Assembly (NCBI GenBank): GCA_021613535.1
Contig: CP075493.1
Span: 17,050,001 to 17,114,000 of the forward strand
DNA: 64,000 nt
From: Adineta vaga
Lineage: Eukaryota; Animalia; Rotifera
Direction of reading: 5' to 3'
The position numbers and the translations under genes are program-made. Positions within the stretch are counted from its first letter, which is position 1. Every line of letters begins with the position of its first letter. The notes below the pieces were generated by a model. It saw only the letters and a list, made by a program, of their open reading frames with translations, had not been told where the DNA came from and ran no database searches. Positions 751 through 62,385 of this stretch are shown one piece after another.

Positions 751-823
751 TGAGGGTGTGGGTGTGGGTGTGGGATGAACACTAGCTAATCATCTACACC
801 CACACCCCGGTGTCCTCATAAGA
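751..823. repeat. Head-to-head telomere-repeat junction element A
   Basis: TGAGGG(TGTGGG)3, about 20 nt spacer, then ACACCCACACCCC...CCTCATAAGA. Lies 74 nt after the TPR stop codon. Confidence 0.8.
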
Positions 824-2944
824 TGTGTATCATGTTTTAACATACGCCTTGTCAGAACAATGTCAATAAAAAAGTTATCAGCTATCACGATTCAATACCA
901 TCGCTGAAGATCATTCAATACATACATCACTATAGTTTGAGCATGGCCAAGACTTGCCATGGAATCTTGTTGATCGATGTTGATTATATAATTCCAGATG
1001 TATCCATTGATAGCCGCCAGCTCATAAACTTTGACGCTTCACTTGCGCGCTTTTTCAAGAATATATTGTTTGAACGAAAGCCTAGCTTGGTTCGAATTTT
1101 TGTTGCTGTTTCTCGAAAAATGCCAAAACTTGAGGAGCAACTCAAATTTCTCTCTCGACATAGAATTTTGAATGATCTCTGATATGTGCAACTGACTGCT
1201 ACTCTAGCAATGGCTCAGTTTCGGCATTTGTACCAACTCTATCTGAATAATAATTTCAAGAAACTCGAGCATCTCTTGATCAGTGATTGATGTTTTCATT
1301 GACTCTGTTGGGCCTTTCAACAGGACTTAATATGTCATATCATACGGTCTCTCAGCTGTTAAAACATTTGTTCAAACCAAATTGGCACTTAACCTTCTTT
1401 TTTAAACTTTCGTTTTAATTATCTCAGTAGAATTAATAGTGAAATTCGTCATTTTTATGGACATTTTGTATTCGAACGGAAGGTCATGATCAAATTTTGA
1501 AAACTGATGGTTTCAGTTCAGTCTCGATACTTTAATCTCACATGTGGATGACTCTTTTTGATGCTCCGTTCGTGAGATCATGTTCTTTAAAAATCACAAA
1601 TTTAGATGCATATGGACGATAGAAACAAATAAAGAAAACAAAAAACTCGCGACGAACTACTAAAGAGTGCCTTCGCACCGAAAAATCGGAAAGTTCCGCT
1701 CTCTTATCTTATATGTACTATCCGCATGATGTGAAAGAACGCAAAAGTAATTTCAGGAATTTCTCATATGATCGCTAAAAATCACTTATTATGTGATGTA
1801 ACAAAGAAGAGAACAATGAATAAACAGCGGGAGACAATAAAAAAAAAGTCACTAAGTGCATTTGTTAGAAGTTATTTCTTTACAAAAAATGAATATTTCG
1901 AAGAAGTTTCGAAGAAAACTGAACCATGATGTATGGGTTAATGTTGTTTTAACGTAAAGTTTAAAGTTCATCCAAATTTAAACAACATTGATCAATACAA
2001 TTCAGCACTATTAAAAAACGTCATACTACCAATTCCACCAGTTACTAATACTTTTCCATTTGATAATATGGATGCTGAATGACGTGCTCGAGCAGCATTC
2101 ATATATCCTGTTATTGTCCATCCTAAGAAAAATTAATGAACACAACAATATACAGAATTACTTAAAATGATATCATTTCACGAGCCTATTTTACGCTTAA
2201 ATAAAGCAAAAAACCATTTTAACTGCTATGCTTTAAAATGTCGTCTCTTATATTAATGTAAGTTTATATGTGTGTAAATTGATTGAAATAAATCTTCTTA
2301 ACCAATTAACAAAGAAAAGATTAAAATGAATTTACATGAATTAATTGTAAATTAATGAATAAATATTCATTTGAATTTGATTTATGATTTCATAGAAGTA
2401 AAAAAAACATTTTTTAAATATAAATAACCACTGAATGAAATTTTCTTTATATACAAGTGTTCTTCTGTTACGATAGGATTTGTTTTAATCGAGATTGGAA
2501 TTGGGATTTAGAGGCATTTCTTAACATTTTTAGTTGATTTTTCTATTGAATTTTTCTAAAATGAATTAGTCACTTCTAAACAAAGGAATTGTGTCATATT
2601 CAAATATGTTTTTCAAAATTTCATATCTTAATATCTATATTCTCTTAACTAAAATTGACACGCATGCAATTATAACATATGTTTTTTCTATAATTGAACT
2701 CTATCAAGAAAAATCAAGTGACGAATCATTGACTATTAACTTAGAAAAGGTAAAAACGCGAATGAGTCTATTTCAGTATTATCTAAATTATCAAATCGAG
2801 CTAATTGACCGAAGATATATACGGTTGGATTTTTCCAACGTTCAATTTTTCTCGATTAGAGATATTGTAGAGTTGAAGGATGCAGATGCGAGTGGAGTGT
2901 ACATTTTCCCTATATCTAACATCATCAATAAATGTTGATTCTCA

Positions 2945-3362
2945 CCTCTTTTACAATAATTCGTAAGCAACAGAGGTAAACATACAGGTGATAGTGAACA
3001 ACATGAATTAATAATACATATGGAATTGTTTGATGCGCAACTATATGTCACATTATCACATACTTCTAAAAATGAACATTGAATAGCAGGAGCACAATAA
3101 CTAATATTGTTTATTGTTAGATAATTGAAACAATAAGGTGTTAGTAACAAAGAACAAGTTTGATTATCAATTGAAGTTACATTACATTGTTGTAAAGAAC
3201 AACTTGATGCTGGATTTGATGCAGAATGATTTGCTGTTGATAATTCAAATTTGACAGTGATATTATTTTCATAACAAGAATAATCAGATGATGCGCTAGT
3301 AAAACCTATAGAAAACAAATTTCGAGGATGAAAATAAGAACGACGGGTGTAATCAATCGCAT
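2945..3362 (-). pseudogene. Secreted Cys-rich protein, frameshifted in the signal peptide
   Basis: ATG at 3362 gives MRLITPVVLIFILEICF, then a frameshift into SIGFTSA and a Cys-rich body (CSLQQC...YCAPAIQCSFLEVC...CIINSCC...VCLP). Confidence 0.55.
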
Positions 3363-3376
3363 GACGTTTTATGAAA

Positions 3377-3458
3377 TCTTGAGGGTGTGGGTGTATACGA
3401 TCGTTGGTTAAGATAGAATCCTTTTTCACACTCACACCAACACCTTCACTCTCACACT
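3377..3458. repeat. Telomere-repeat junction element B
   Basis: TCTTGAGGGTGTGGGTGT ... CACACTCACACCAACACC. Confidence 0.75.
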
Positions 3459-3924: not shown

Positions 3925-3970
3925 TTGAGGGTGTGGATGATTCTCTTCTCTTTACCCTCACCCACACCCT
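3925..3970. repeat. Telomere-repeat junction element C
   Basis: TTGAGGGTGTGG-ATGATTCTCTTCTCTTTA-CCCTCACCCACACCCT. Confidence 0.8.
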
Positions 3971-4049
3971 TTTTTATTACGTTAACATTCAATTTTACTG
4001 ATATTATACTTTTCAACAACAAAAAATAAGCGAAAGTTTTAAAATTTTG

Positions 4050-5893: not shown

Positions 5894-8005
5894 TCATTTC
5901 ATTTTTATATCTGAGTGCAAACTAAGTGCAATGCAACAGAAATAACAGAAATATAAAATTAAAAGGAATTTGTTTATGATGACTATTTTAATCGTTTGAT
6001 AATGTTGAATAATTGGATAAATTCCAACAATAATAAACGAAATTATTAACCAAACTATTCCAAAACAAATCCAAAAAGTAAAAAATATTCCATTAAATAT
6101 ATGATTTACCATAAAGAGGCCATGGCCAAATAATAGTTAAACATATTACTATTCCAATTGCTAATAAACGCACATATCGAGAATTTTCTTTGATATAATT
6201 AATTCCACGTTCTATATCTTCAATAGTCACTTTATTTGGATTTGGTAAATCATCATCAATTAATTTTATTTCTTTTAATGATACAAAATCATATGGAACT
6301 TAATTCATCTATGGTTTATTATATAACTAAACAGAGGAATGAATACTATTGGACTAAATAATGCAACAAGATTTCCAACAAGCATCGATAGATCTGATCC
6401 AGTTGATTCAATATCTATTTTTCCAAAAACATATTTAGCTGTTAATAACCATGATATTATCGAACAGATGAAACCCAATGGTGGTGAAAGACAAGTAGCT
6501 AATTTATTTTGTTTATTCCACAAAAGTATTAATACACTTGGTAAAACAGCACTCGAGATAATAATTCTCATCATTCTATATAAATATCCTAAACTTATTG
6601 AAATATAATATAAACCAATGGATAAAATACTCATAATTAAAGTAAAAATTAATAAAGATAATACGGAAATATAAAATAATTTTTTTTCCGATGCATTTGG
6701 ATTGAATTAAGTTCGATAAATATCAAATGTAACTATTAATCCAACGGAAATTAATTGTGCAGACATAGCGCTTGTACACATGCTAAATAGATCATGAGAA
6801 AACTTAATATACTTCCACTTTTTTCAAGTAAAACAATTGCAGCTGATGGTAATGTTAATCCAGAAGTAACATCATCTTCACTTAATCGATTTGGATACGT
6901 TGGAAATGCAGGTTGATCTTCAAGTGTAATGACAACAATACCCATTGTTGTACCAGTAAGAAATAGTATTGCAAACCATGCTATACCACCAAGAATATAA
7001 CCAAGTACAGCTGATGTTGAAGAAGCAGCAATAACTTTATTATAATATCTATTATCAAGAAAAACTGTACCAAAATTGCCAATTAAATTGATAATGAAAA
7101 ACATTAAACCATCACAAGATTTGATTGTTAAATAAGAATCTTGAAAATTTCCATCAAATGGATGAATTAAACTTGCATTCATAAGTAAATCATAGATTTT
7201 TGAAAATGAACCCAACAAAGGTCATGTTTGATATGTTGTTAATGAAAAAAAGAATATTATAATGATAATTGTTACTGTATGAACATAATTTGTTAGAAAT
7301 GTTGTTTTTGTTCCTCCAACTATTGTATAAATTATTGTTCCTAATGGTATTAACCCTTATACTCCCACCCTTCGTTTTGCAGCTTTTTTGGACATTAATA
7401 ACCTATACTGATATATCCCTATAAGGCCATCTGTCTCATCCAAAAATCCCACCTATAATTTAAAACTTGCTATTGTTCCATCCTCAAGTCTTCCCTCTGG
7501 CGTAGGTGCTTTGTATTCGCTCTCTATAAACGGTTCATACATATCCTACACTGACCCACATTCATAGTAGTATTGTCGATCTCATTTCGGAACTTTCTAA
7601 AAAAATATAAACCAAAAAAAATTTCATCATGCAGTTACATTTACTACTAATTGGGTCAAAAATGTCCCAGGCTGGGAGTATAAGGGTTAACAGACAAACA
7701 GTAATAATATTCATTCCACATAAAGAATGAATAACAGCTGAACAACCTGTTAATAACAATAATGTAACAATAATATTGGCAAATAAGAAAAATATAATAA
7801 ATATCCAATGACCTAAACGACCATATCGTGCATGAATAACTTCTAAATATGTATGAGCAAATGGTGCACGACGTTTAAATTCAATTACAATGATTGAAAA
7901 TAAGATAATTTGAATTGTTGCACCATTTGCATACCAAAATGCGCCAGATATTCCATATAAATAAGTGACAGATGTTGATTGTGATAATGGAAATGTTGTA
8001 AACAT
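5894..8005 (-). pseudogene. DUR3: Urea active transporter DUR3 (sodium:solute symporter family) pseudogene
   Basis: YGISGAFWYANGATIQIILF...KRRAPFAHTYLEVIHARYG; GNFGTVFLDNRYYNK; YILGGIAWFAI; WPWPLYG. Several frameshifts and a piggyBac MITE insertion. Confidence 0.85.
7354..7686. mobile_element. piggyBac-type MITE inserted in DUR3
   Basis: 14-bp TIR CCCTTATACTCCCA/TGGGAGTATAAGGG with TTAA on both sides. Removal restores [18 protein letters not shown]. Confidence 0.9.
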
Positions 8006-8643
8006 TGTTGTTTTGTCTAAAATAAATCAAACTTTCACTTACGTTGATCTTTATAGCAGAAAAAATGAAAGTGCGTCAATTCTTTACATTATATCTATGA
8101 AATGTCAGGAAATCTATTCTCTTTCAAATTTTCTGAAGCGAAGAAAAAAAAACAAATTATATTTTTAATATTTTATTCTGTTTAGTAATCATCAGAAGAG
8201 GAAAAGTCAGACATTTTGATTCAAGATATAATGGTTGTATATCCTGTATTTGTTAAACATGTCATTATCTTTAAAGATCAGGTTTTATTTTATGCATAGA
8301 AACAATACTTCATTTGGATGTAAATGAACTGCTGTATATTAAAAAACGACTATAAATAATTCATTAATGTCGATCTTTTCTTGTCTATTTTTTTCATAAA
8401 AAACAAACAATTCTAGTGTCAGATTTTAAAAGACGTAAGAGAATTATCTCAAGTAGAATCAGTCAAGAACGTTCTACTTATAATTACCTTTTCCTGTTTT
8501 TCTAACTATGGCATTCTTCATACATAATCTTAATGTTTACACAGAAATTATTTCGACTAAATAATCATCAATGAATATAAGAGAAAAAGTCAAAGTTTCT
8601 GAAATGACCTTTCATTTTTTAGTACTTGTTTGGGCGCTAGGCT

Positions 8644-14173: not shown

Positions 14174-14555
14174 CAAGGGGGAAAAAGCGAAAAGTCGGTA
14201 CTCCAGTATACTCTTTGTACTCCCTCGGTAAGTTATCAGTATCCTTGAAATTTTTCTTAGTGTTTTCAAGTTCACCAGTGACCAGTGTTACAGTGCACCC
14301 GCTGGAGTACAATGTAACTAACACTAGCGAGCAGAAAGCCTCAAATACTCCAAAATACTCCAGTTTCGAAGTATCATGGAGTATTTGAACATTTCTATTC
14401 GCTAGGTTTATTTGCATTGTACTCCAGCGGGTGCACTGTAACACTGATCACCGGTGGACTTGAAAATACTGAAAAACCTCTCAAGAATACTCATAATTTA
14501 TCGCGGGAGTACAAAGAGTATACGGAAGTACCGACTTTTCGCTTTTTCCCCCTTG
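14174..14555. mobile_element. Foldback MITE with CAAGGGGGAAAAAGCG TIRs (copy 1)
   Basis: Long TIR beginning CAAGGGGGAAAAAGCGAAAAGTCGGTACT. A near-identical copy lies at 38046-38429 in the opposite orientation. TSD not resolved. Confidence 0.85.
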
Positions 14556-15065
14556 GGATAGGTGAGTGTAGGTAATCTTATCTTTCTTCACCCGTACCCT
14601 CAAAACCAGTTGAAGAGAATTGTCTTTCTCTGGTTAATTTATGAATAGCGTCGATATTCATCCATAAATGTTTTTCAAGTTCATCAGCTTTATTTGTTGC
14701 TATTGGTATTGAAGTTCCATTGTAACTATTAGTATCACCAGGATTAGCAAATTGATCTTTCATAGATTTATGTTTCTTTTATAAAGGCTCTAAAACTATT
14801 ACAGTGTTATTGATTAAATCCTAGTATCTCGTTTGATCGTTCATGTATATAAAGGTGTACCACATGGTTAGAATGCGTCGTATCGAAGTTACTAATTTCG
14901 ATATAACATATAAGAGTTCAGTTCAAAGTAGAATACCTGAATTTGAACTGAACTCTAATCCATTCTCCGATTTATACATGAAAAAGAAGAACAATGTTCT
15001 ATGGTGAAAAATAAAAGTTTTACTGTCAATTAGGAAACATGTAATAGGCAAGTGGTCTGTGCATT

Positions 15066-17150
15066 TCACAGAGCCTGTTTGACCTGTATGACGTATTTGC
15101 TTGGTCTGTCACAGGTTTCAAAATAACGGTCTGTGCTTGTCGTAGGCAGGCAGGCGTCATGACTTGTTTGAATCTCTTTTTTATCCTCATTTTGATCTTT
15201 CCAAGGTATCACATGTCCATCCTCTTTTTCATACATATTAAGATCACCAATGTATATGGAAATGAGCTTTGATTCGTCCAATGCTTTATGTGCTTGTTGC
15301 ACTGCTTTGTGATATTCTTCAGTATTTCGTTGATTAGAAGGAAATGATTGATCGACTATTTTATCTGCATAACAGTAGGCTTCTTCTTTTCGTCCCAATG
15401 TTTGTAATGATAAAGCGATAAAATAGTACGTAAACGTGATATCTGTATGTAATGATGGAAGAATAACGAGCAGAATATCAAGTGCACGATGATAATAAAT
15501 TAGAGCTTCGTCATCTTTTTCTTGTTGAGACAAAATATAAGCAATATTCTTATATCCTTCAGCAATTTTATTTTGATCTACTGGAGATAGACTTAACTGA
15601 ATATCTAAAGAACGCTTGTAATAGTCAAGAGACATGTCTAGATTGTCCTGACTAGCATAAATATTACCAATATTATCATAGCATTCACTGACAAATGAAT
15701 CTTCATGATAATGCTCTACTTGGATACAATCAACTGCTTTCTCACAATATTCGAGCGCTTGATCATATTTTTTCATCTCGTAATGTAATTTACCCATGTG
15801 ATTAAGTGCTATTGCGTTTTGTTTTGCATCTTTAATTCTTTCCAACGCTTTTTTATAGAACTCGTTAGCCTTCTCTTTTTCGTTCATATGAGACATCAAA
15901 TGTCCTAGCATGAGTAAAGGACCATTCGGATCATAGATATTTCTTTGTATGAAATTGGACAACTTTTTCATTTGAGGATCTGCATCGGATGTTAATTCTA
16001 GTTCAACTTGCCATAATCCCTTCTCTATCTGTTCAACAGATAACATTCGAAAGACGGTACCCATTGAGAACAGAAATTCACTCTCAGCTCCTTCAAAGGT
16101 ACTTTGTGTATCAGTACTTGCAACGGCAATATCTAAGTTCATTGTTGAATCTAGATGAATACACATAAAAACGGCTGTGATTTCTTCATTTCCAGAAGCA
16201 AACATTCGAGCAACATTGTGATCACCAGTAGTAGAAAGAAAATTCGAAATAGAAACAAGTCCACCTACATTTGATGCAAAGCGTTCAAATGTATCGTTCG
16301 GCATGCTAAGACCACGAAAAAGAACAGAAGGAAGTGTGAGTTCGGATTGTTGAGCAAGACTACGAAGTTGCTGATCGAGATGTCGTATAACAACTCGCAT
16401 AGCATAGATAGCATCAATCTCCAGCGTTCTTAATGCTTTATTAAGCATTCTGTATAGAAATGAATCACGTGTGTACCATTCGATACTATTTTCTGCACAA
16501 TATTCTCGCTCGAAGTCACCAATTTTCTTTAGTTCACTAACATTACCTTCATAAATTGTTCGACAATATACAAGCATATCATTCATATCTGTATCTGTCA
16601 TTTGAAGAATAATGTTCTTTATTATTTGAGTGTACATGAAACTTGATTCTTGCTTATTTTTTAGTTCTACACTTGTGGTTGTTTGATTTTGAGCAAATTC
16701 GAAACCAATCATATTTCTATCTGCTTGAGATATACTATCTTTTAATACTGCATTCATTGATTCAATATTTGTGAAGATACCCTGTACTTTGCGATAATAA
16801 TTTATTTTCTGTTGTTGTGTTTCTTTGTCAAGGTTCAAAATAAATATTGATTCGACTTGAACATATGAGTGAAGTTGCAGAATATTCTGTTCATCAAATA
16901 ATTCCGAAATAATAATAAAGATTTTTTCATGTTTGATTGTACTAATAAACTGAATACAGTCATCGATATTAAAAAAAGTATAAATATCATTTATAATTCG
17001 TTGTAATTCTTTTTCTTCAGCATCTTCTATTGGCCTACCAAGCCATACAAGAACAAAATTTTCTACATTAAATCGGTAACGTTCACGAATTGAAGCAGAA
17101 GACTGTACGATCTGTTCATTCGATTGCTGTACATTCTTTTCATTCAGCAT
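15066..17150 (-). CDS. ADP-ribosyltransferase (R-S-E type) + TPR repeat protein, intronless
   Basis: WYTRDSFLYRMLNKALR, LFRG, FLSTT and ESEFLF catalytic motifs followed by TPRs; 694 aa. Confidence 0.85.
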   Translation of the reverse strand: MLNEKNVQQSNEQIVQSSASIRERYRFNVENFVLVWLGRPIEDAEEKELQRIINDIYTFFNIDDCIQFISTIKHEKIFIIISELFDEQNILQLHSYVQVESIFILNLDKETQQQKINYYRKVQGIFTNIESMNAVLKDSISQADRNMIGFEFAQNQTTTSVELKNKQESSFMYTQIIKNIILQMTDTDMNDMLVYCRTIYEGNVSELKKIGDFEREYCAENSIEWYTRDSFLYRMLNKALRTLEIDAIYAMRVVIRHLDQQLRSLAQQSELTLPSVLFRGLSMPNDTFERFASNVGGLVSISNFLSTTGDHNVARMFASGNEEITAVFMCIHLDSTMNLDIAVASTDTQSTFEGAESEFLFSMGTVFRMLSVEQIEKGLWQVELELTSDADPQMKKLSNFIQRNIYDPNGPLLMLGHLMSHMNEKEKANEFYKKALERIKDAKQNAIALNHMGKLHYEMKKYDQALEYCEKAVDCIQVEHYHEDSFVSECYDNIGNIYASQDNLDMSLDYYKRSLDIQLSLSPVDQNKIAEGYKNIAYILSQQEKDDEALIYYHRALDILLVILPSLHTDITFTYYFIALSLQTLGRKEEAYCYADKIVDQSFPSNQRNTEEYHKAVQQAHKALDESKLISIYIGDLNMYEKEDGHVIPWKDQNEDKKEIQTSHDACLPTTSTDRYFETCDRPSKYVIQVKQAL

Positions 17151-17597
17151 CTATCTATATATATAAAGAAGACAGTCTGTCTGTCTGTTCGTTATGCATT
17201 CAGTCCCTGTAATAGCTAGGGTGTGGGTGTGGGTGTGGATTTAAAAGGAACAGAGCTATATGTCGTCTGCTTAGCGAGACAAGACCAGTATGAAAGAATC
17301 AATGAAGAGATGTAAAAAGTTCTGAAAAAAGAGACCTGGTGCATGACGCGAAAAGGGATATAGGAGGTACCCCAGTACGGAGGAGAAAGACGTGTGGAAG
17401 ACAGGTAACGCGAACTGAGTGACGATCTGAAGGCTTACATTAACACTAGCTAAGGCAGGACGGGAAAGGAAGGTGTAAGGATTTTTTGATACACGAAGGG
17501 TAAATACCAATGGAGAGGTCCGGTGGGTGATGAGAAGAGCACTGTTGTAGATGAAAAACTGAAATTGCGTCCTCTTTGCAGCGGGTATCTCCGCTAG
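17150..17597 (+). mobile_element. Non-autonomous Helitron
   Basis: 5' TCTATCTATATATATAAAG plus (CTGT)n; 3' GC hairpin AGCGG-GTATCT-CCGCT and terminal CTAG; inserted between A and T with no TSD. Confidence 0.7.
17218..17238 (+). repeat. One-armed telomeric tract D inside the Helitron
   Basis: AGGGTGTGGGTGTGGGTGTGG. Confidence 0.8.
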
Positions 17598-17906
17598 TAT
17601 TTAATAAACAACAGAAATCTCATTCGAAATAATCATGAAATTCAGTTGTCTTGTTTACTTTATAAGTTTAATTTTTACATATGTGGAGAAAAGAATGTGC
17701 CAGAAAAATAAAAAACGAAAAAAAGTCTCATGACACATTTATAAAAACTACCATGTGTACACAACGCATGTGATGGCGTTTGTAGTGATTTTTTCGCAGT
17801 AACGTCATTACTGAGTCGCACTACAACTCATAAAAAGATGTTTAATGATAAGAATTAAAACATCGTCGTTTAACTGCAGTAGTGTCAAACTTGAAACCTG
17901 AATTCA

Positions 17907-18080
17907 ATGGAATATCCTCGAATTTTCAACGTAAAATACTGCACACTCGTTGAGATATTGAATTGTAAAAGAATTATTTGTTTCATTCAACACGTAACAC
18001 AGAATAATGATTAATTTGAGAATTCAATGTCTCAACGAGGGTACAGTATTTTACGCTGGAAATCTCAGGATACACTATTG
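17907..18080. repeat. Imperfect inverted repeat of about 60 bp (degenerate MITE)
   Basis: cgtaaaatactgcacactcgttgagatattgaatt versus aattcaatgtctcaacgagggtacagtattttacg. Confidence 0.6.
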
Positions 18081-18750
18081 ATGGTTAGGCCTACTTATGA
18101 GAAAATTTTCAGTTAAAATTCCTCTTTTTTGACTTTACTCCACATCACAAAAACTGTCAAAAATTCAGTAAAGACCACATAACTCGGTCCCAAAGCCCTG
18201 GCGACCTAAATACTCTTAGGAATATGCTAGCCTTAAGAGTTCCTACATATGATCAAAATATCAACTCAAAAGCGGCTGAACAGTTAGTACCGCTCCCTCG
18301 TGAGCATCAAAATAGATCAAATGAGACGAGATCTAATTAAATAAGTATTCTCACATCCTCTCATTCCTCAAAAACAAATCTCCATGTAGTTATGATGATA
18401 AATACAGTCGAAAAAATATCAGTCTATCTATATATATGTCATGCCGAAATGTACAAATAATGGTCGCATAGTAAATACATTTTATATGATAGTGAATCGT
18501 ATTCAATTTGGCATTAACTTCTGAGAAAATACTGACTATTTTAGAACATCGAAAAAGCTACTCAGCATGTGGTCATCTATTGAAATTTTGTTCTTTCAAT
18601 TTTTGTTCTTGATTATTTGTATTTGAAAATAAATAAACTTATTTGATAAGCCTAATTATACACAAGAAAAAGAAGATTAATGATAAGATTGTTTCAAAAT
18701 AGTTTCTCACAGTGAAAGATATTCATTGTTGAAATTACAATCTTACAGAG

Positions 18751-19987
18751 TATGGCATATTCGATTTCATTACCTGCAAGAGTAAGTAAATGAACATTTG
18801 TTGAGAAGGAAATGGAATATTTTCATATAGATAACTACTGCTTTATCTGTAACAGCATCTTCAGAAACGTTAGTATCAACAACAGCTAGTGATAATATCA
18901 AATTCAAAAATGATTTCATTTCCAAAATATCGACAATGAGAAATGAATCATTGAATAATCCTGTTCTTACATTAGAACGATATGATGAAACAGTTAAAGT
19001 AATTCGAAGAGAAATGATAAAGAAATGTCATTATTAAAAACTTACGATGTAATTAATCTTGGTAATCAAGATAAATCAGTTAAGAAAATTTATGAAAGAG
19101 AAGATACTACAATTAAATATTATGTTCCGCTAAGTGAAATTTATGATGTAATTAGAATTGCTCATTCAAATATAAGTCATCATGGTATGAAATATACTTT
19201 AAAAGAAATTAAGAGACGATGTGCGAATGTTACTGGAAAACAAGTTAAATTATTTATTTCTAATTGTGAAGAATGCAAAATGAAACGTTCTAAACCTAGA
19301 AACTCATCAAAATTAGTGATAAATCCGATTCTTTCAAATTATTTTATTAATTCTCGTGGTCAGGTTGACCTTATTGACATGCAATCGTACCCCGACGGAC
19401 CGTTTAAGTTTATATTGAATTATCAAGATCATTTTACGAAATTATGTGTTTTACGACCTCTTAAAAAAAAAACAACAGCAGAAGTCGCTTAGCATTTATT
19501 AAATATTTTTGCGATATTTGGTGCACCACTTATCTTACAGTCAGATAATGGAAGAGAATTTACCGCTCATGTCATTGAAGATCGTCAATAGCAAACCACG
19601 ACATTCACAGTCGCAGGGATCTGTCGAGAGATGTGATCAAGACACGAAACAGTTGTTAGGTATGTCAGAATGACATAGTTAATGCGCAATATTTTATTTT
19701 GCTATTTAGGAACATGGATCCGTGAAAATAATTCCACAAGATGGTCTGAAGAAATGGGCTTTGTACAGTTTCAAAAAAAAATTTGTATCCATCGAGAATT
19801 AAATAATAGTCCATATTCCGTTTTATTTGGGAACGAACCAAAATTAGATTTATCCTCAACATCTTTACATCCATTTGTATTTAATAATATAAGAACAGAA
19901 GAAGAATTAAATATTGTTCTTAATAGGACACGTGATAGTGATTCTAAAGTTTCTGATGATTTACAAGCGACAAAAGGGTATTACTAA
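18751..19987 (+). mobile_element. Degraded KRBA2/SCAND3-like DDE integrase (Ginger-type DNA transposon)
   Basis: HHCC zinc motif, RGQVDLIDMQ, YQDHFTK, FGAPLILQSDNGREF, PRHSQSQGSVER. In-frame stop and frameshifts. 3' part ends near half-junction E. Confidence 0.8.
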
Positions 19988-20046
19988 TTTATGCAAACAG
20001 CACAAACATCCAACTCTTTAAGAACGCGCATAACTTCTGCTGACAA

Positions 20047-20064
20047 ACACTCACACCCTCAAGA
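20047..20064 (-). repeat. Half junction element E
   Basis: ACACTCACACCCTCAAGA. Confidence 0.7.
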
Positions 20065-20169
20065 TGGCATAGTTGACTCGTAAGACGGTTTGACTATCAT
20101 AAGATTTTCTTCTTGGTTATATAATTATTAATCGATAATAAAGATAATAAATCGTCTTGATTAAAAATA

Positions 20170-20230
20170 TTGAGGGTGTGGGTGTGGGTACAGCATCGAT
20201 CAGACACTCACACCCACCCCTTTCTCAAGA
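20170..20230. repeat. Telomere-repeat junction element F
   Basis: TTGAGGGTGTGGGTGTGGG-TACAGCATCGATCAG-ACACTCACACCCACCCC...CTCAAGA. Confidence 0.85.
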
Positions 20231-20250
20231 TATTAGAATTTCATGTCATG

Positions 20251-21360
20251 ATAAATATTGTTTTGACTACTTTAGCTTTTTTGATTTTTTTAGTTGCAAC
20301 ATTTTAAACCACTACAAATGGTTGTGCTCGTATTCATCAAATGAAACTATTTTGGTTAAATTTTTTATTTGTTAATAAATCCATTTTTATGAGAACCACA
20401 ATTTAAAAAGCAAAGTAAAAATATTAATAAATTGCAATTTCCTCATCCATTCACAATAGAATGTAGTTAGTAAAATTATACTAAGAGAAAGTATTGAATA
20501 AAAAAACAGGATATTATTAGGTTCTCATACAAATAACACACTATTTCGTACAACTAGTAGAGATAAATAATATTATAAATAAAGAAAATAGATTTGTTCG
20601 TCTCTATCCACTAATAACTTTAGTATTTCCGTCTGGTGATGACATTATTGGTTTTGCAACTCCAAAAACAACATTAGCGTTACTCGCCATAACTCCTCTG
20701 TATGTACCGACTTGATTGTCTCTTGTTTCTTCTGTACCATCAGAATATTTAATAGTTAGGTGAGATGTAAACGGAACTTCAACCGTTCCTTCTATAACAA
20801 ACATTGATGCATCTATGGTCGAATTTGCTGGTACTAGCACTTCTAATGTATATTCGTTTGATTTTTCTTCGGTTGTTTGCGAGCCGTATGAAAATCCTAC
20901 TGTGATACTTGCACTAACTTTCACTGTGCCTTCAGCAAGTATGGGAAATCCACATTTCAATGTGGTCTCTACGCCAACCTAAAATGGAAAGTATATAGTA
21001 ACAAAAAGAAAAGGTTCATGAACTATGAATAATGCCATCAGTTCTCATAAGGCATACGCTTGATGCATATGTTTTAGTTTTTTATTCAATAGTTTTAAAA
21101 TTTCTACCGATATTTTAGTGACCTATTGTAATAGTTCATTTTAATATATATAATCGAACAAGAATCTAGTTATCTAGCAATCTCAGTCTAAAAAACGATT
21201 ATAAATGTGTGAGTGCGATGTCTCTTCAATCTTTCATTATACCAATTAAATTCTATAGTTTGAAATAATTGAGAAAAATTCTTTTAGTCTGTGAAGATTT
21301 CACTTACTGACAGTTCAGCTGAGAAAGTAAACGATTGAGTACGACTAGTTTTATAGGTAA
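20251..21360 (-). pseudogene. 5'-truncated duplicate of the aerolysin-like toxin gene (3' UTR, last exon, last intron, end of the previous exon)
   Basis: High identity to 28706-29991. Homology stops exactly at TATAGGTAA|GGGTGTGGG. Confidence 0.9.
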
Positions 21361-21403
21361 GGGTGTGGGTGAAAGTGAAGAAGATATACCCACACCCTCA
21401 AGA
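21360..21403. repeat. Telomere-repeat junction element G
   Basis: AGGGTGTGGGTG-AAAGTGAAGAAGATATA-CCCACACCCTCAAGA. Confidence 0.85.
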
Positions 21404-41268: not shown

Positions 41269-41407
41269 GAATGTAAACAATTAGAACAATTAAATCAAAT
41301 GATTGATATGAGCAAGTTATTAAAGAACTATATTGTATATCGTCAATACGAACGATTTTATATAACAATGGAAATGAATTTAGTTTAATAATTAGAATAC
41401 CATTGAT

Positions 41408-44400
41408 CAGTGTTTTTAATAGACCGTGCCAGCTGTGTGAGCAAAGTACCAGCGGCACGGAGAAATTTGAAAAGGCACGGTATTTGGCACTTTGCTAAAA
41501 AAAATGAGATATCTAGATGGTACTTTGTTAAATGAAAAAGTACCTTGCTTATTGGTTATCATAGCTTATCTATGAATCACTTTTTCCTTCCTTTATTTTA
41601 TTTCTACTTGTAGATGGAGCTAAAATAGTTTATTCTTCCACAAGATTTATTGTTGTTTTTAACTAGACAGGTTATTTAATTCGTTTTTTTCTTACATTTT
41701 TTTCTGGTTTCTCATTTGGTTTGGTGATTTGCTGTATTAATTTTCTCAACGTCTTTTTCAAATCTACGTTGGTATGTGATTATTTCGTTAGATTATTTCG
41801 AACCTTTGTTTTATACTTAGAACTATACAAGTTCGATATTCATTGTATTGAACAAGATATTCAATTCGTTTTTTTATTATTTTATTTCCGGTTTTCGTTT
41901 CTTTGTTGATTTGCGGATTTCTTAGTACTTTGTCGAAGACTAAGTAAGTGCATTTTCGTGATTATTTCATTTTTCTCATTCAGTTTATATTTATAATAGC
42001 TGTCTATGGATCAATCAAATTCTATTGAACTTCTTCATGATAGTTTATCATCTATTGGTATTCAAAAAGATGAACAAAATCTAAATGATTTATTAGCTAA
42101 TAATGGTGAAGTTTCATCTGAAGAAAATGAAATAAGTGATATTGATATTATTTTAACTGGTGTTATTGACAAATGTGCTGATGGAAATCGATTAGATATG
42201 TTATCAGATGTAACCATTAATCACGTTTGTGATACTTCATTAAAAAAAGGAAATCCAGCAGTAAAACAAACAACACATAATTCGAAACGATCAGAAAAGG
42301 AGAAACGTCGTTATTTGTCGTCATGGGAATCAGAACCAGTATGTTTTTATAAAACTTATTATTATGATATGCACAATGTTATGCTCGAAAGAAAAGTATG
42401 TTGGTTATATAAGAAAACCGATAAAAATGGTGATGACCGTATTTATTGTAAACTTTGTGCAAAATATCCAGGAATAAAATCAACAAATCGAAAAAGTAAT
42501 CCTTGGTGCACAGATGGTTATAGTATATTGAAAATGGCAAAAATCAAAGATCATGCAGCTAGTAATACTCATAAACAAGCTGAACAACTTGAATTACAAA
42601 CATCATCTAAAGTTCAACCGAACTGGTTGGTAGCACAAAATAAAGAACGAAGCAAACATGAGCTTTCAATTCAAAACTTAATTTTATCTTCTGTATATTT
42701 ATGTCAACAAGATCAATCAATAAATTCCTTTGGAAAATTATGTGTATTGATTGAAGCACTCGGTGTTAAATTATTACCAGCAGAGTTAGGTGGAGTTTCC
42801 TATCGAAACGATAATGCAGCTATAGAATTTTTGCGTCATGTTTCTGCTGGTTTACATGAAGAATTAGTACAAAAACTCAACCAAAGTCCATCGATCGGTA
42901 TAAAAAAATTACTTAAATTACCAAATATTTATTTTCTTGTTTTTTTAGGTTGGATGCTTGATGAAAGTACATCACGTACTGTTGAAAAAAGTTTAATAAT
43001 GTATGTTAGGTATTTCGAGAACAATGAAGCTAGGATTCAGTTTTATGGGATTTTGAAGTTAGATAGTGATGGTACAGCACATAACATTGTAGAATCTATT
43101 AAATTAATTTGGCAAAAAGATGGTTTTAATCCCGAAAAGACTTGTTGGTTTTCTACTGATAATGCTGCAACTTTCACAAGTACTAATTATTTATTGAAAT
43201 AATAAAATCTAATCTAATTGTTGAAGGTATAAATAATGGTGTTGTGACTAAATTGAAACGTGATTTTGGTCTTGCATTCATGGAATTAAACACTTGTGTA
43301 GCACATTCTTTTGCATTAGTAGGAAGTCAATCTGGTCTTTTCAAAGAAGGTATAAATTATCTAGTTTTATACATTGTTAAACAAGTTATTCTTTAGATGG
43401 TGGTAAACTGAAAAAACGAGATTTAATATGTAAAATGGAAAATATTATTGGAAAGATTTATTTATATTTCGGATCAAGTGCCATTCGAACTTTTAAATTG
43501 AAATCATGGCAAAATCTACTCGATATTCGTGAACTGAAATTTAAGAAATTGTTTCACATTCGATGGTCATCTATTAGAGATTCGATAAAACCAATTATCT
43601 TGAATGTTACACCAAGTAAATTGTTTTGAAAATTATTTAACATAATGTTATTATACTTATTATTTTATCATAGCAAAGCAAGCACTGTTAGCAACTTTAG
43701 AAACAATCAAATTTAACACGAAATTACCTGTCGATGATCGTGAATTTGCAGGAGAATTATTGGATTCGATACTTGATGATCAATTTTTGTTCATCCTCCA
43801 TTTTCACTATGACTTACATGAATGTGTTTTAGGTAAGATAATCTTATTACTTTTTAGAATTGTATCATTTGTTTTATAGGAGAATTAACAAAGATCTTAC
43901 AAGATGATGATTTACCATATTTTACCATGATGAACATATTAAATGAAAAGAAAAAGATATTGAATAACTGGTTATCTCAAAAAGATGAACTAGAACCTAT
44001 ACTTGGTCCTTCATTGAATGAATATGCAAATTCTACAGAAAAAAATCAGTCCTATGGTGCATTTACAATCATTACTGGTGATAGATCGAAACTTTTAAAT
44101 GAATGTTTTACACATATCAATCAATTATTAATAGAAATTGATAAAAGATTTAAACCTTCTTATGTACAACAACGTTTTATTGTTTTATTCGAACCTGATT
44201 ATTTAATTCAGCACAAAAGTGAGGTTGATAAACCTGGTTACGGTCGACAAGTACTTGATTTTCTTCGTATTAAATACCAACATTTACCTGAATTAAATAT
44301 GGATCAATGTCGAATTGAATGGGAAAAAATGAAGGTATCATTAAGTGAATTTGTTTTAAATAATCAAGAAAAAAATTCTCGACGAACATTTTGGAAATCT

Positions 44401-45454
44401 TTTATATTATGGAAAGAACCACTTGATAATTGTTTTCATGAACAATATAAAAATATCTTGATATTATTATCTATCTATTTGATATCATCACTTAGTTCCA
44501 CTGAATGTGAACGTGGTTATTCTGTTGCAAACAGAATTCAAACAAATGGACGTTCACGAATTATGATAGAAACACTTGATGTCTTGATGAATGTTCGATT
44601 ACTTTTACCAGATGATTTGAGAAGGTAAAAATATTGCCTGGTGCTGTGTCAGAAGACGCCGTTAAATTCTTAAATTAATTTTAGTGATCGATGTCGACAA
44701 GTAATTCAACAAGCATATAATTCATGGAATGGTATTAACGAAAATCGTCGAATCTTTAGCACAAAATTGATTATTGATGTACCAGATGATTATGAACCAA
44801 TAAAACACTCGCGTGCTACACATAAACGAAAACAAGAATCAGCAACAACTGACATTAGTCTACCTGAATCAAAAAAAAGAAAGTTAAAGATATAAAATGT
44901 GCTAATCGTTGTGGAAAATGTATCACTGATGATGATCCAGAAGAAATCCACGCCATACAATGTTGTCATCAGCAGGAATATTATGATTGGATTGAAGCTA
45001 ATTGTTCTCGTTGGTTATGCAATGTATGTCGTGTAAAATTAGGAATATCTATAGATACATTATCATGGTTTTGTGAAGATTGTATTGACATGCACGCAAA
45101 CGAATAATTGATTAGCGTTTTATTTTTTTGTTTGATATTGTATATAGTATGTTTACCATATTGTGGTTACTATTAGTTCATGAAAATATTCTTAATTTAT
45201 AGTCAGATATTTATGTATTTATTGTTGTTGGTGTTGATGTGTTTTACTTTATATTTGTATTATTTTTTCCATAGAGCTATCTCGTTATGAAAATATACTG
45301 ATAGTAAAAACTTTCACTATGTTTTCCTGTTATTTTTTTAAACTTTGGTACGGTATGGTACTTTGCCACTTAAAACAAAGTACCACATGGCACTTTGACT
45401 ATACATTGAACGTGCCAGTAGGCCTTCTGCTCCGGATTCCTATTAAAAACACTG
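41408..45454 (+). mobile_element. Full-length hAT transposon (ZNF862-like transposase)
   Basis: 15-bp TIR CAGTGTTTTTAATAG; 8-bp TSD CCATTGAT at 41400-41407 and 45455-45462. Confidence 0.93.
42006..45107 (+). CDS. hAT transposase, multi-exon, with a C-terminal PHD-like Cys cluster (frameshift in the A-run near 44875)
   Basis: CKLC..H..H zinc finger, MLDEST, STDNAA, CVAH, IRWSS, SSTECERGYS dimerisation motif. Confidence 0.8.
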
Positions 45455-46900: not shown

Positions 46901-46951
46901 TGGGGTGAGGGTGAGTGTTGGTTAACTACGTAGATCCACACTCTCACACTC
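46901..46951. repeat. Degenerate junction element P
   Basis: TGGGGTGAGGGTGAGTGT ... CCACACTCTCACACTC. Confidence 0.6.
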
Positions 46952-53777: not shown

Positions 53778-54716
53778 AGGTACCTGTAATTTATGCAATC
53801 ACCCGTAATCACCCAACCTTTTGAGATACGATAAAAGTGAGTCTGACAACCACCTACAACTCGATGAGTTATGTTCACAAACAGCCACAATCACCCACAT
53901 TTGATGAGTTTTAGACGAAATAAACCGCCCACAAAGGTGAAAAAAATAGTCCTCTTCAAAACAACCATCCAGAATCTCTCTTATAGTTCCACAAACGTCA
54001 GAAGTTGTCTCCTACAACCACCCATAGAATTACAAAAGCTACATTTTCTCAAGCACAAGTAGTGGGTTTACATAGGCCTGTAAGGATCTGAATGGGGGTG
54101 TGGGTGAGTGTGCATATAGTTCTCAGTTTGGCGTATAAGCGCGCAAAGGGTGTCCACATTCGCTTGCCTGATATTCGCACTAACATATGATGTTGAATAA
54201 GTATGAGTACGGTTATAATTAGTGAAACTATCAGTGTGGGTGTGGGTGTACTTGTACATCTCGTCGATGAAGAGTGAGTTAATTAGAATGTGTGAATTGG
54301 TTAAGTTTTGGGAGTGAGGAAGGAAATGTGGACACCCTTTGCGCGCTTATACGCCAAACTGAGAACTATATGCACACTCACCCACACCCCCATTCAGATC
54401 CTTACAGGCCTATGTAAACCCACTACTTGTGCTTGAGAAAATGTAGCTTTTGTAATTCTATGGGTGGTTGTAGGAGACAACTTCTGACGTTTGTGGAACT
54501 ATAAGAGAGATTCTGGATGGTTGTTTTGAAGAGGACTATTTTTTTCACCTTTGTGGGCGGTTTATTTCGTCTAAAACTCATCAAATGTGGGTGATTGTGG
54601 CTGTTTGTGAACATAACTCATCGAGTTGTAGGTGGTTGTCAGACTCACTTTTATCGTATCTCAAAAAGTTGGGTGGTTGTGGTGATTGCGGGTGATTGCA
54701 TAAATTACAGGTACCC
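53778..54716. mobile_element. MULE-type foldback element
   Basis: Near-perfect arms of about 385 bp (53778-54160 and 54325-54716); 9-bp TSD AATGTAAGG. Confidence 0.9.
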
Positions 54717-55693: not shown

Positions 55694-55768
55694 GGTCGTT
55701 CTAGTCTAACTGGCTTAGGACATCTGCCCAGATAGCAGAAGATGTGGGTTCGAATCCCACGAAGATCA
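55694..55768 (+). tRNA. tRNA-like gene with a non-canonical anticodon loop (AGA), inside a MITE
   Basis: A box TAGTCTAACTGG; anticodon arm TCTGC-CCAGATA-GCAGA; T arm GTGGG-TTCGAAT-CCCAC; acceptor GGTC(G)TTC/GAAGATC; T5 terminator. Confidence 0.6.
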
Positions 55769-56469: not shown

Positions 56470-57129
56470 TTAAAATGATTTATTTATGATTTACAGTCGA
56501 TTTAAATCAGCCTGTTCCCTCTTGGTAAATCTCCAAGTTTTTTACATGTACTAATTCATCGTTCACTTCAACAATAACTTGATAGATTAGCGAGGAGGAA
56601 TCGGTAAATCGTAGCTCCTCGGAGTTCTTTTCTCAAGTCCTGAAACCCATAGCCTTGGAGTCCTGAAAAGTCCCATAGAGTCCACTAAACCCTAGATTCC
56701 ACGAGTCGCAGTTTTCTCAAGCTCTTGGAGCTCAGTATTCTTGACATCTGCCATATCCCCGTATGAAATTCGACAAAATTTTCATATAGTATTTTATCAT
56801 GGATTCTACGACTTCGGGACTCCACTGGTATCCCAGAGTCTGCCGTTTTCCCTTGGTAGACTAGTTGAATAAAAAATTAGTACAAGTACTTATATAACTT
56901 ATGAACATTTCCAGGGAAATAGTAACTTTATACCATTGTAAAATCCTATTGTAAAGCTTGATTTACACGAGTTTTAAATTAGTTAAACTCAATTCAAGTC
57001 ATAAAAATCACTTTAACTCATTTTAAACCACTAAATCATAAATCACTTTTTCCCCCTTGGAATAAAACCTGACAGGGTTCTGAGTCAGAGCTTAAACCTC
57101 AAATAGTTTCCTATGGCGTCATTTTTTTT

Positions 57130-57695
57130 TACAGAGTAGCACCGCTTATGGCTGATCTAAATCCCAAGAAGGTGATGCTGAGCGTTTGGTGGGTGTCAAT
57201 AGGATTATTCATTGGGAAATTCTTCCAAATGGTTGCAACATCACTGCTGATCTCTACTGTCAACAACTGCATCGGGTTGCCAAAATACTCAAGGGAAAGC
57301 AGGATCGAATTTATCATTTGCATGAAAACTCAAGACCCCATGTTGCAAAGTCAATCTTTGAAAAATTATTGAAGCTCGGATGGATTACCATTCCTCCTCT
57401 ACCTTATTCTCCTAACTTAGCTCCAACGGACTATCATTTGTTTCGTTCTCTTTTTCATCATTTGCATGAGAAAAAGGTCGACGCCGAGAACGACGTGAAA
57501 ATGGATATCGCCAACTTCTTTGATAACAAATCCTAGGTCTACTACGAACATGGGAACTGATCTCTGCCAGAGCGTTGCGACAAGTCATATATAGTAGTGG
57601 TGCATATATCACTGAAAGCTAGTTCTACTGTTGAAGTTAAAAAATACTAATAAAATTTTTGAAAAAAACGCAAAAGCGTTGTTGTCGACCTAATA
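57130..57695 (+). mobile_element. 5'-truncated mariner transposon
   Basis: KKVMLSVWW, YCQQL, HENSRPH, PYSPNLAPTDYHLFRSL; 3' end ...GACCTAATA-TA. Confidence 0.85.
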
Positions 57696-59156: not shown

Positions 59157-59333
59157 ATCACGCGCTGGATGATGGAGCAATAGTTCTTATCGATCACATG
59201 CTAAATGATGGATTAATATTTCGATTCTATCACGCGCTCGACAGTGGAGCAATAGTTCTTATCGATCACATGCTAAATGATGAATTAATATTTCGATTCT
59301 ATCACGCGCTCGACAGTGGAGCAATAGTTCTTA
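59157..59333. repeat. 72-bp tandem repeat, about 2.5 copies
   Basis: ATCACGCGCT recurs at 59157, 59229 and 59301. Confidence 0.9.
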
Positions 59334-60829
59334 CACAACTAACGCTGGCCAGACGATGTTTTTGTGAAACCCAATATTGAGTTTTATCAGGAATGTGACG
59401 CTCGTGGAGTGCGGAGGTGCGCACCCCTCCAACTTTAGAAAATTTTCAGTTTTTCACAGCCAAAATCGTATATTTTATTGAAAAAGAAGAACGTAAAATT
59501 AAAAAAATTAATTTTGCACTAGCACTTTTAAAACATTATGTATACATACCTCCGAAAATTCGAAAAAAATTTTCTGACTCATCCCTTCGTTTTACCATTG
59601 AGAAATAAATTAGTTATGTATGTCTTTTCTTTTTGCCAGATATACTCTTTAAAAAAATCTGCACCATTAAAGGTTTTAAAGAAAATCCTGAAGCTTTTTA
59701 GGTTCCTTTCAGTTATTAATAAACCATCAGAAGGTTCCAGATAATTTCAAGAACGTGACAGACAGAAAAGATGGTTCGATACATTTAAAAAAGTTCCATC
59801 TCACACCAGTTTTTTCTATAAATAAATGCGGAAACCTCGGATTTAAATCCAAGTGTTATGTGTACTTCAAAAAGTCACAAAGGATATTCATTTTTTTATT
59901 ACTGTAATTTAATTTAGGTTCAAAATGACATCTATTTTAAATCTAAAAGATTTGTTTTGTCACATTTTAATTTCGTTTTTACTAAAAGAGATTTTATTCA
60001 TATTACTATTATTAATTAAAACTTTTTCATATTTTGAATCAAATGATATAGTTTTATGTTTATATAATAAATGAAAATAATGATATTTGTTTTCCACCAA
60101 TGATAATAAGTAGTTCTTTTTTCTTACTTTGTTTAAAATCTAAGCATTCAATAGGTTTTTATCCTTCTTTCTTAAATCTATCTTAATTAAAACAATTAAT
60201 TTGATTATTATGACAAATATGAAAGAAATTTTGATATTTAATATATCTCTCATTAAATTGAGATAAAGAATATGTTTGTCCAGGTGTTTGACAACACTAT
60301 AGTTCAAGTGTTAAATAAACTGATATCCTAATAAATGTTCCATTTTGGACATAATGATGAAAGTTGGAATCTTTCAAACCTGATTCTTCCAAAAACTGGT
60401 ATATTTTCACTTCTTTTCCAGTATTTTTTATGATTTATTATTTCATTTAACGATAAATATGTATTTTATTTATTAAATACATCTGATGAAACATATTGAT
60501 AGTGACATTTCTCTATTAGTTATTGATAAAAAAGGCTAGGATTTAATAGATCAGTAAAATAGATTAAATGATCAGTAAACTAATCAGATGATCAGTTATT
60601 AAACAAAAAACCGCTCTTTAATAAATTATATGATTAGTAAATAAAATATTTTACCAGTCAGTTATATTAAACTATCAGTGGAAAAGTCGAAACGGACTAG
60701 GATGTGTTCGAGTTGTTGTTTGTTTACTTTCTTTTTTTCCCTCTCGTTCAGTATAAATGACTGACTACACATGTACTCTATTCTCATTTCGATTTAAACT
60801 TTATCCAGATAATACAGAAGAAAATGAAT

Positions 60830-61550
60830 ACACAAAAGGTTATTCCATACATGAACGGATCATACGATGATGAAGTAGAAACAAATGATAATGATTTACA
60901 ATCAAATAAGAAAATCAAGAATAGACAAACTAAATATTGGTTAAAATAAGCTGAATTTAGCAATGCCGATGAAGTTCAAGCATCAGTTGAACTTATATGG
61001 TCAAAACACTATACAAATCATAGTGATATTGGAAGAAAAGTATATTACCGGTGCAAAAAATCTAAACTCCATGGTCCTCAATATCGTGCAGGTATATATT
61101 TACTATATCATGCAGATAGTGACAAAGTGTCCATGTATAAAACGGAAGATGATCATGATCACAACGAACAAGATATTCGTGGTATCGATGAAAATGTCAA
61201 GAAATCTATTCGAGAATTATTTAATGACGGTATTATGAAGCCAAAGCAAATTATTCGAGCATTGAAAGCAAGAAATATAACAATACCATCCACCGATTAT
61301 AAAGATGAAAAATTATCTGGCTCAATATAAAAAGAAAAAATTTGGATCTTACCATTATAAGTTTAGGAGAATTAGAGGAATAGTGCAAAATAAATCTTAA
61401 TATTCCAGTTAATGAAAATAAATCTTTTGTTGTTTCTTATCAAATAATATATGAAGGTGAAGATAATGAAGATAATGACGATGATGAAGACATTAATGAA
61501 AATAAATTTCGTATATTTATCTCATCGTTACGATTGTTAACCATTGCTTC
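60830..61550 (+). mobile_element. Degraded MULE-like transposase fragment
   Basis: WSKHY...KVYYRCKK...HDH zinc-knuckle, KPKQI, FRIFISSLRLL; stops and frameshift. Confidence 0.55.
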
Positions 61551-62276
61551 CATTCCAGATCAACCGATACTACGATCGTAAACGACCGTATACGTGCCGT
61601 TTTCCATCGTATTCGAACTTGAACAGCCGTAAAAAACCGTGATATTCGAAATTTCAAAACCACTTCACTGGAATTTCCCCAGAATTTCATTAGGATTTCA
61701 AAAAGATTGCATTAGGATTTTGTCATGATTTCAATAGGATTTCACCATATCATGCAATCCTTTTTGCATTTCATATGCAAAAGGTCTATTTACTTATATA
61801 GACCAATGTCCGCAAAACACAAAAGGTGAATGTAATCTGGACAGAATCCAGATTTCGTGTATTTCAATTATTGCTGTTGCGCTGGAGAGTAAAGAAGTTT
61901 ATAGAGTGAAGAAGTGTTTAGGAACAGAGGCTAGTGTATATATTTCTTATATATCATGGTGATTACATGAAAACTCCTTGTATGATCTGTGAAATGTTGT
62001 TTAAGTGGAACTTTGCTAAACATATGTTTTGATGGAACTGTAGCCGCTAAAGTTTAGTGGATACTTGAACAATCCAGAACTGTGAACAAGTAGAGACTCA
62101 TGAGTAACGAATTTTTGAGGCGCATCAGAATATCCATGGCTTTGCTCAGTTGTATATTCAGAAATTGTTTCTTGTGTGAAATAAACACTACACTCCAAGA
62201 AACATCAATATTGACGCATGCATTTGAACTTATGATGGGCAGAGGTGATACATTATGCAGATGGTAGAAATACTTT

Positions 62277-62385
62277 TGGGTTTGGATGGGTGTGGGTGTG
62301 GGTGGGTGTGTAGGTTTGGGTGAAGAAAAGAGATTTAACCCACACCCGCCCACACCCATCCATCCACCACACCCACACTCTCAAG
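62277..62385. repeat. Telomere-repeat junction element Q
   Basis: (TGTGGG)-like run, GAAGAAAAGAGATTTAA spacer, (CCCACA)-like run, CTCTCAAG. Confidence 0.85.

Follow-up and report, generated by a model that had tools for sequence, protein, structure and literature searches.

Telomere-like arms at the joints between cut gene pieces in a 64-kb stretch of the Adineta vaga genome

The stretch of DNA analysed here (the window) comprises 64,000 nucleotides of the bdelloid rotifer Adineta vaga (assembly GCA_021613535.1, contig CP075493.1, positions 17,050,001 to 17,114,000 of the forward strand), and all coordinates below are positions within it. Genes, gene debris and transposon remains are interspersed with short elements whose arms are built of TGAGGG and TGTGGG hexamers. 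TGAGGG is the telomeric repeat of Philodina. TGTGGG is the bdelloid telomeric repeat, according to the accessible text of three papers (PMC8494291, PMC7943196, PMC13564844). A complete element is a pair, with a G-rich arm, a spacer and a C-rich arm following one another. Checking against the sequence confirmed a telomere-like arm at all 17 sites named in an earlier reading of this DNA (the original prediction), which had described about 11 of its elements as a G-rich arm, a spacer and a C-rich arm; 12 are pairs and five are solo arms, and a pair at 14562-14602 had been missed. An unbiased scan of the window (12-mers with up to two mismatches, clustered, with arms within 100 nt counted as a pair) gave 16 clusters of either type (G and C), forming ten G-then-C pairs and no C-then-G pair, compared with means of 0.64 G clusters and 0.98 C clusters and no pairs in 50 block-wise dinucleotide shuffles. 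With the degenerate pairs recognised by eye at 14562, 27411 and 28664, the window total is 13 pairs and five solo arms in a single polarity. The elements are real, recurrent and non-random in the window.

Seven of the 13 window pairs have a spacer of 13-15 nt, and 13 nt is the window minimum. The spacer measures 13 nt at 3926-3972; 14 nt at the degenerate pair 14562-14602, at 20167-20231 (the 20170 pair), at 33072-33141 (the 33076 pair) and at 62284-62387 (arms of 40 and 46 nt); and 15 nt at 21358-21404 and the degenerate pair 27407-27447. Longer spacers are found at 28660-28704 (20 nt, C arm of 6 nt), the degenerate pair 46903-46951 (20 nt), 747-822 (21 nt between a G arm at 751-774 and a C arm at 796-807, outer end degenerate), 41036-41270 (22 nt, followed by a C arm at 41075-41270 that contains variant units) and 3376-3455 (32 nt, with a complete ATCT-TGAGGG start and a degenerate C arm), and at 31748-31872 the arms are separated by 73 nt with degenerate repeats within. 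The solo arms are one G arm at 17218-17238 (forward strand, no spacer) and four C arms on the reverse strand at 20047-20065, 22067-22084, 32281-32298 and 38725-38746, the last being degenerate, recognised by eye and under the scan thresholds. Arm lengths range from 6 to 46 nt except for the 199-nt C arm at 41075-41270. A head-to-head pair occurs every 3-4 kb, and the pieces between elements range 150-fold, from 101 bp to 15,314 bp.

Contigs with 0 differences span at least eight of the ten elements of 16500-34500 in three of the four sequencing runs compared, so the elements are not assembly chimeras, an objection that the original prediction had allowed for. The three spanning runs are short-read contigs from three studies; two of them are possibly the window's own source, and X5 is not so marked. 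Elements 17218 and 21360 have no bridging contig among the matches listed. The stereotyped arms are common to several sequencing runs. Among the matches listed, other genomic copies of the arms carry other linkers and unrelated flanks: 14-28 contigs end at single arm positions with a flank agreement of 0.4-0.5, and five linkers have unequal lengths of 15-32 nt. Stretches near 29.7-31.5 kb and 32.1-32.7 kb match the window's own contigs in depth and reach about half the depth of paralogous contigs, a faint sign of hemizygosity at most, since gaps in contig coverage are no proof. A pattern scan of metagenomes gave 18 matches. Nine come from AT-rich contigs and show the same element; the other nine, GC-rich perfect hairpins that are probably bacterial, were removed before all counts. 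The metagenome loci contribute 11 pairs, a biased sample in that they had been picked by a motif search allowing gaps of 8-38 nt. Viral contigs gave 0 matches in one pattern scan and two single-arm chance matches in further scanning, and prokaryotic genomes gave 0.

Comparisons of the flanks bore out the proposal that the elements are joints and not insertions: the pieces that meet there are cut and mostly unrelated. Across junctions, the best direct repeat is on average 2.6 nt long, compared with 3.1 nt in mismatched pairs, and reaches 5 nt or more at only one of 24 junctions; no target-site duplication was found at the 24 junctions tested, and arms stand at truncation points. A 1.1-kb duplicate, the 3' part of a jacalin and ETX/MTX2-domain gene, is present at 20251-21360 (reverse strand) and 28706-29991 (92% and 81% identical), and each copy starts next to an element. 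In the first copy, the DNA match to the paralogue ends inside an exon at 21360, and the arm starting at 21358 takes over in register. On the other side of this pair lies an internal piece of an F-box/LRR-type gene (21403-22047, reverse strand) corresponding to residues 291-505 of a 571-aa Adineta vaga homologue, which aligns only as far as 21403, at the C arm, and 22047. The pair 21358-21404 joins the cut end of the lectin-gene piece to a cut end of the F-box/LRR piece, whose other cut end is ~20 nt from the solo C arm 22067-22084. Similarly, an internal urea-carboxylase-like piece (40535-41035, reverse strand, left limit approximate; residues 326-351 and 362-429 of a 1236-aa chain) begins at the G arm at 41036 in a comparison with PDB sequences, the homologue search being empty. 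All named homologues found for two of the window's proteins come from Adineta (1/1 and 10/10). At 17218, a repeat family parts from the window in at least 22-24 contigs in three runs, and among the matches listed one 90%-identical contig matches up to 33138 and continues into unlike sequence.

Where homologues exist, no pair shows the cut sequence resuming beyond the element in the paralogues compared, and no empty orthologous site with continuous flanks was seen in a comparison limited to paralogues. The outer flanks of pairs are not mirrored. Since the arms replace native sequence at the cut points, they are later than the break. Three tandem NHL-repeat exons at 22454-25285 (65-68% identical) are joined without any telomere element, indicating that only some rearrangements use the elements. 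The region is a mosaic of genes and their debris rather than an ordered set of cassettes, and is probably subtelomeric in position. The flank labels of the original prediction were partly revised: 'aquaporin' and 'glycosyltransferase' have no Pfam support, and the gene left of 3377 is of Cys-rich and Kelch type.

The solo G arm 17218-17238 splits the 5' and 3' parts of a high-copy repeat at 17154-17598, which we take to be Helitron-like from its end motifs, and may represent a one-sided join with a deletion. The 5' end of this repeat is a GTCT microsatellite and the 3' end is a GC hairpin with CTAG; its summed contig depth exceeds 1,600, compared with ~14 for unique contigs (run X6). The segment 17240-17598 was considered as a Terminon end and dropped in favour of the presumed Helitron-like 3' end.

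The arms begin in a stereotyped way. The outermost hexamer is TGAGGG in 19 of 27 window arms, compared with 3 of 42 later hexamers (Fisher p 4e-8; four window arms were left out of this count), and after this start the arms switch to TGTGGG. The match to ATCTTG fades outward along the arm start (G 19, T 21, T 18, C 8, T 14 and A 15, each of 27). The same trend is seen in the 22 metagenome arms (16/22 first vs. 15/48 later hexamers), from loci partly picked on this motif. The start register varies, the arm beginning after a single A at 21360 and 17218 and after a conserved Asp codon at 21403, and the in-register microhomology in these three cases is 1 nt at 21360 and 17218 and at most 3 nt (from the conserved Asp) at 21403. 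The length of one arm of a pair does not significantly predict that of the other (rho 0.30, p 0.15). Such starts would be expected if the arms were primed on a single fixed RNA template; the constant ATCT is a candidate for a fragment derived from telomerase RNA. Telomerase or a related reverse transcriptase is the best inference for the capping enzyme, in line with the original suggestion of telomerase or an Athena-type enzyme, but no Athena or Terminon end was found at any arm. The Pfam scan of open reading frames (ORFs) found no Penelope-like element (PLE) reverse transcriptase at the arms, and Rfam gave no hammerhead match in the window at E<=1, a search that divergent motifs could escape. 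A hammerhead core pattern occurs at four window sites, none at an arm.

The spacers are the second regular feature. Taking window and metagenome together, 11 of 24 spacers are 13-15 nt long and one is shorter (p <=0.0009 under three simple nulls); the spacer statistics comprise several tests on a small set, with p values uncorrected. The GC content of the spacers is close to that of the genome (0.34 vs. 0.32), one of their strands is richer in purines than genomic windows are (p 0.02), and A begins the spacer at 31 of 48 ends, the arm caller swallowing G and some T. Local templating was rejected on a similarity to the 300-nt flanks of 6.92 vs. 6.95, and foldback extension into the spacer on spacer ends less self-complementary than genomic windows (24 vs. 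38). Common ancestry of all short spacers finds no support, since the ten of 13-15 nt (one sister removed) align no better than their own shuffles (29/150). The mean pairwise spacer similarity is 4.84 against a null of 4.70 (5/200), and a 12-mer common to the 751 spacer and 17442 is at chance level given the number of words tested. As the usual linker we favour either a captured short duplex or a tail rich in A and purines that was added without a template, with microhomology closing it. The end-to-end fusion geometry originally put forward holds for the polarity, which is that of two facing G-strand ends (10 vs. 0), whereas plain fusion leaves the 13-15 nt mode unexplained.

Taken together, we consider it probable that the elements are repair scars, left where broken ends received an RNA-templated cap before a linker of ~14 bases joined them. 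A telomerase-type enzyme (TERT or an Athena-like reverse transcriptase) would align a broken 3' end over 1-4 nt with an RNA whose sequence is predicted to hold the complement of ATCTTGAGGGTGTGGG, copy it once from a variable start and, after realignment, add 1-5 TGTGGG units. The capped end, not matured to a telomere, could then join an uncapped end directly, leaving a solo arm, or a second capped end, giving a pair. Two G-tails are unable to anneal, so a linker would be needed in the latter case, and it would be closed by microhomology and fill-in. Existing modules would sometimes serve as donors or break again, placing the same module between new flanks. Bdelloid TERT sequences were reportedly described in the 2007 Athena paper.

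Several points weigh against this explanation. One survey, in its accessible text, did not find TERT in A. vaga (PMC5405514), and the template RNA was not found, literature searches and Rfam giving no rotifer telomerase RNA. The microhomologies of 1-3 nt are possibly due to chance. Ordinary end-joining does not predict the 13-15 nt mode, and the spacers are not copied from the 300-nt flanks. The flank comparisons at 3377 and 33076 are uninformative, with the homology to the Cys-rich/Kelch gene left of 3377 ending 10-95 nt short of the arm and that to the transporter right of 33076 ending more than 350 nt from it. For none of the pairs did an empty or ancestral allele come to light, which leaves room for insertion followed by rearrangement. 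Finally, two arms belonging to the same element resemble each other slightly more than arms taken from different elements do (p 0.01), and the 20170 and 33076 pairs represent one module at two places; both observations fit a copied unit.

The last two observations bear on an explanation that we regard as unlikely, in which copying of the linker is the main route: a G-tailed end would invade an existing module, or be bridged by the module's RNA, copy the spacer and C arm and anneal to a second G-tail, so that the spacers would be old lineages and only the outer repeats new. The 20170 and 33076 pairs have both arms and the spacer in common in inverted orientation (92% identity over 50 nt, the second at 33092-33141) between unrelated flanks, an instance of copying that the original prediction, although it spoke of copied pieces, had overlooked. 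In addition, a 13-mer at 28647, just left of 28661, matches the end of the 20170 spacer at 12 of 13 positions and has no other site in the window. An inherited spacer would also account for the fixed length, and by eye the inner repeats seem more degenerate than the outer ones. However, most spacers are unrelated by the shuffle and similarity values given above, the five linkers listed from other genomic copies vary in length, and the origin of the first modules would be left unexplained. The shared module and the 28647 match do indicate that modules can be copied or break again, and under the repair-scar reading donor copying would be a secondary route.

It is quite unlikely that the elements are miniature inverted-repeat transposable elements (MITEs) or attC-like recombination sites with telomere-like termini, whose flanks became unrelated by later recombination between copies. 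As in attC sites, the outer ends are conserved around a variable middle; one module is duplicated, the arms within an element are slightly alike, and a true MITE at 53779-54715 bears arm-like sequence in its inverted repeats. Against this stand the lack of a target-site duplication, the varying start registers and repeat numbers of the termini, the low self-complementarity of the spacer ends, the five solo arms and the unrelated interiors, the 20170/33076 spacer being the one shared pair among the 13 window pairs. The Pfam scan of 85 ORFs, five of them from metagenome loci, found no recombinase family, and specifically no site-specific recombinase of the tyrosine type. The integron-like cassette array of the original prediction likewise finds no support, given exon cuts that destroy genes, the wide range of piece lengths, solo arms at 5 of 18 elements and NHL copies without an element.

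We regard as highly unlikely a programmed site of breakage and telomere seeding, similar to the sequence for elimination (SFE) of nematodes, at which a dimeric factor would cut a pair of facing seeds and each resulting end would be healed, the elements then being the cause of the rearrangements. The geometry suits a two-way seed, with a degenerate palindrome and tight spacing, and one arm has grown to 199 nt. However, the arms stand in for the native continuation at 21360, 21403 and 17218, so the motif did not pre-exist; the repeat number is variable, solo arms are common and genes are destroyed at the sites. Contigs with 0 differences cross the elements, though contigs lose rare forms, and a literature search found no paper linking programmed elimination, rotifers and telomere addition. 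There is very little to be said for staggered nicks, with repeats added at two opposite-strand nicks ~14 nt apart and the spacer as native DNA: a single step would yield the polarity and the fixed spacer, and the spacer GC is like that of the genome, but the 21360 spacer extends neither the left paralogue nor the right protein homologue, and the flanks are different genes. Assembly chimeras joined at telomere repeats are of negligible probability, since, although repeats stand at the joints and two elements are unbridged among the matches listed, at least eight of ten are bridged without differences in three runs, the spacers are unique and nine metagenome contigs have the same form.

Several known systems resemble the elements in part. 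Short interstitial telomeric sequences (ITSs), including TERC-ITSs, likewise consist of a few repeats at a break that interrupt native sequence, and they show deletions and seemingly random added bases in the accessible text of PMC2246262 and PMC8537989. In mammals, they show in-register microhomology, and at 8 of 14 loci they carry bases that complement the RNA immediately 3' of its template, as far as the accessible text of PMC2246262 goes. The accessible text ascribes head-to-head arrangements at two lemur loci and one Xenopus locus to a second telomerase acting on the other end, and gives single orientation and rejoining of the same locus as the rule, with head-to-head forms rare; here 13 of 18 elements are head-to-head and join unrelated pieces, the window spacers do not fall below 13 nt and no telomerase-RNA fragment was identified. 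The flanks of the pairs are not one locus, and the pairs are thus not plain members of this class. The solo arm at 17218 fits the short-ITS type and may be a rejoining within the same element. Induced deletion breakpoints carry telomeric repeats in a few A. vaga lines, according to the accessible text of PMC13564844. Cancer neotelomeres and telomere-spanning fusions also place repeats at an internal break that is then fused, but their tracts, in the part of 10.1101/2023.11.30.569101 that was accessible, are hundreds of bases long, sporadic and somatic, whereas the arms here are short and stereotyped; the accessible part of 10.1101/2022.10.31.514589 is not decisive for this comparison.

Bdelloid subtelomeres with their Athena-Terminon arrays have the same repeat, in short stretches that truncate elements, in the accessible text of PMC6431247, PMC2861651, PMC8494291 and PMC13564844, and the window gene content (TPR, LRR, NHL, Kelch, F-box, PAN, transposon debris and foreign-type genes) resembles that of the subtelomeric fosmids described in the accessible text of PMC2861651. 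Those stretches are described there as head-to-tail, single-orientation caps beside hammerhead-bearing retroelement ends, whereas the window has inverted pairs, with no hammerhead or PLE reverse transcriptase found at its arms. No inverted pairs with a linker were found in the bdelloid telomere and junction papers, which were covered in part and without supplements, so a prior description is possible. The SFE of Oscheius tipulae is a degenerate palindrome of 29 bp; its inner triplets act as primers for telomeres to either side, and the priming bases face inward at a fixed spacing as here (accessible text of PMC13060919). However, it precedes the break, its spacer measures 3 bp, and it contains conserved blocks of non-telomeric sequence and lacks repeat arrays, whereas the arms here are added sequence. 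Integron attC arrays and MITEs have conserved inverted ends with a variable centre and are dispersed between genes, as are the elements here, which differ in the absence of a recombinase among the ORFs scanned, of intact one-gene cassettes and of target-site duplications and in their variable termini and solo arms.

Other features lie around the elements. Two copies (97%) of a 385-bp, nearly fully palindromic MITE are found at 14174-14558, adjoining the pair 14562-14602, and at 38044-38428. The MITE at 53779-54715 has inverted repeats of ~390 bp with the arm-like stretch at 54093 and 54381 and a further G tract at 54235. A 55-bp palindrome at 40477-40531, preceded by arm-like CTTGAGG, lies near the 3' end of the urea-carboxylase-like piece, and a decayed urea-transporter-like fragment (6305-8026; by eye, no Pfam match) lies 33 kb from that likewise decayed piece. 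The jacalin and ETX/MTX2-domain (natterin-like) gene occupies 28500-30613, and 20251-21360 is a truncated copy of its 3' part. Three small PAN-domain ORFs at 30703-32153 have the elements 31749 and 32281 between and beside them. Decayed transposons are found at 18998-19987 (integrase and H2C2 finger), 42000-44628 (hAT-type with C17orf113 finger) and 57073-57536 (mariner-type). A tRNA-like sequence at 55695-55768 (38.7 bits, over the Rfam gathering score) is possibly a pseudogene or the head of a short interspersed nuclear element. Right of the 62277 element is a 456-codon open frame without a Pfam family (62631-63998, reverse strand). Among the metagenome loci, L005 carries an LCIB/C-type beta carbonic anhydrase of algal/bacterial type (645-1664, E 1e-50), 165 nt from the element, and in L014 an ORF resembling a non-long-terminal-repeat reverse transcriptase (1243-1521, reverse strand; by eye, no Pfam match) runs into the C arm.

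Bdelloids rebuild their chromosomes, reshuffle their subtelomeres and take up foreign genes, and the joints would provide a countable signature of one repair route behind these processes. They supply a search string for the template RNA and a marker that can be scored in irradiated or desiccated lines, and they allow asking whether horizontally acquired genes enter via capped ends. Should the 14-nt ruler prove to hold throughout the genome, it would point to an undescribed joining step; if not, the elements would be unusually dense but ordinary telomere scars of break repair. More tentatively, bdelloids may have a dedicated end-joining system, in which an RNA-templated enzyme, possibly something other than a canonical TERT, adds a standard adaptor to any broken end and a 14-nt-ruler factor or a copied module links the adaptors. 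Were this true, the arms would spell out the bdelloid telomere template, and any two fragments could be joined without homology, giving a route for subtelomeric shuffling and the uptake of foreign DNA.

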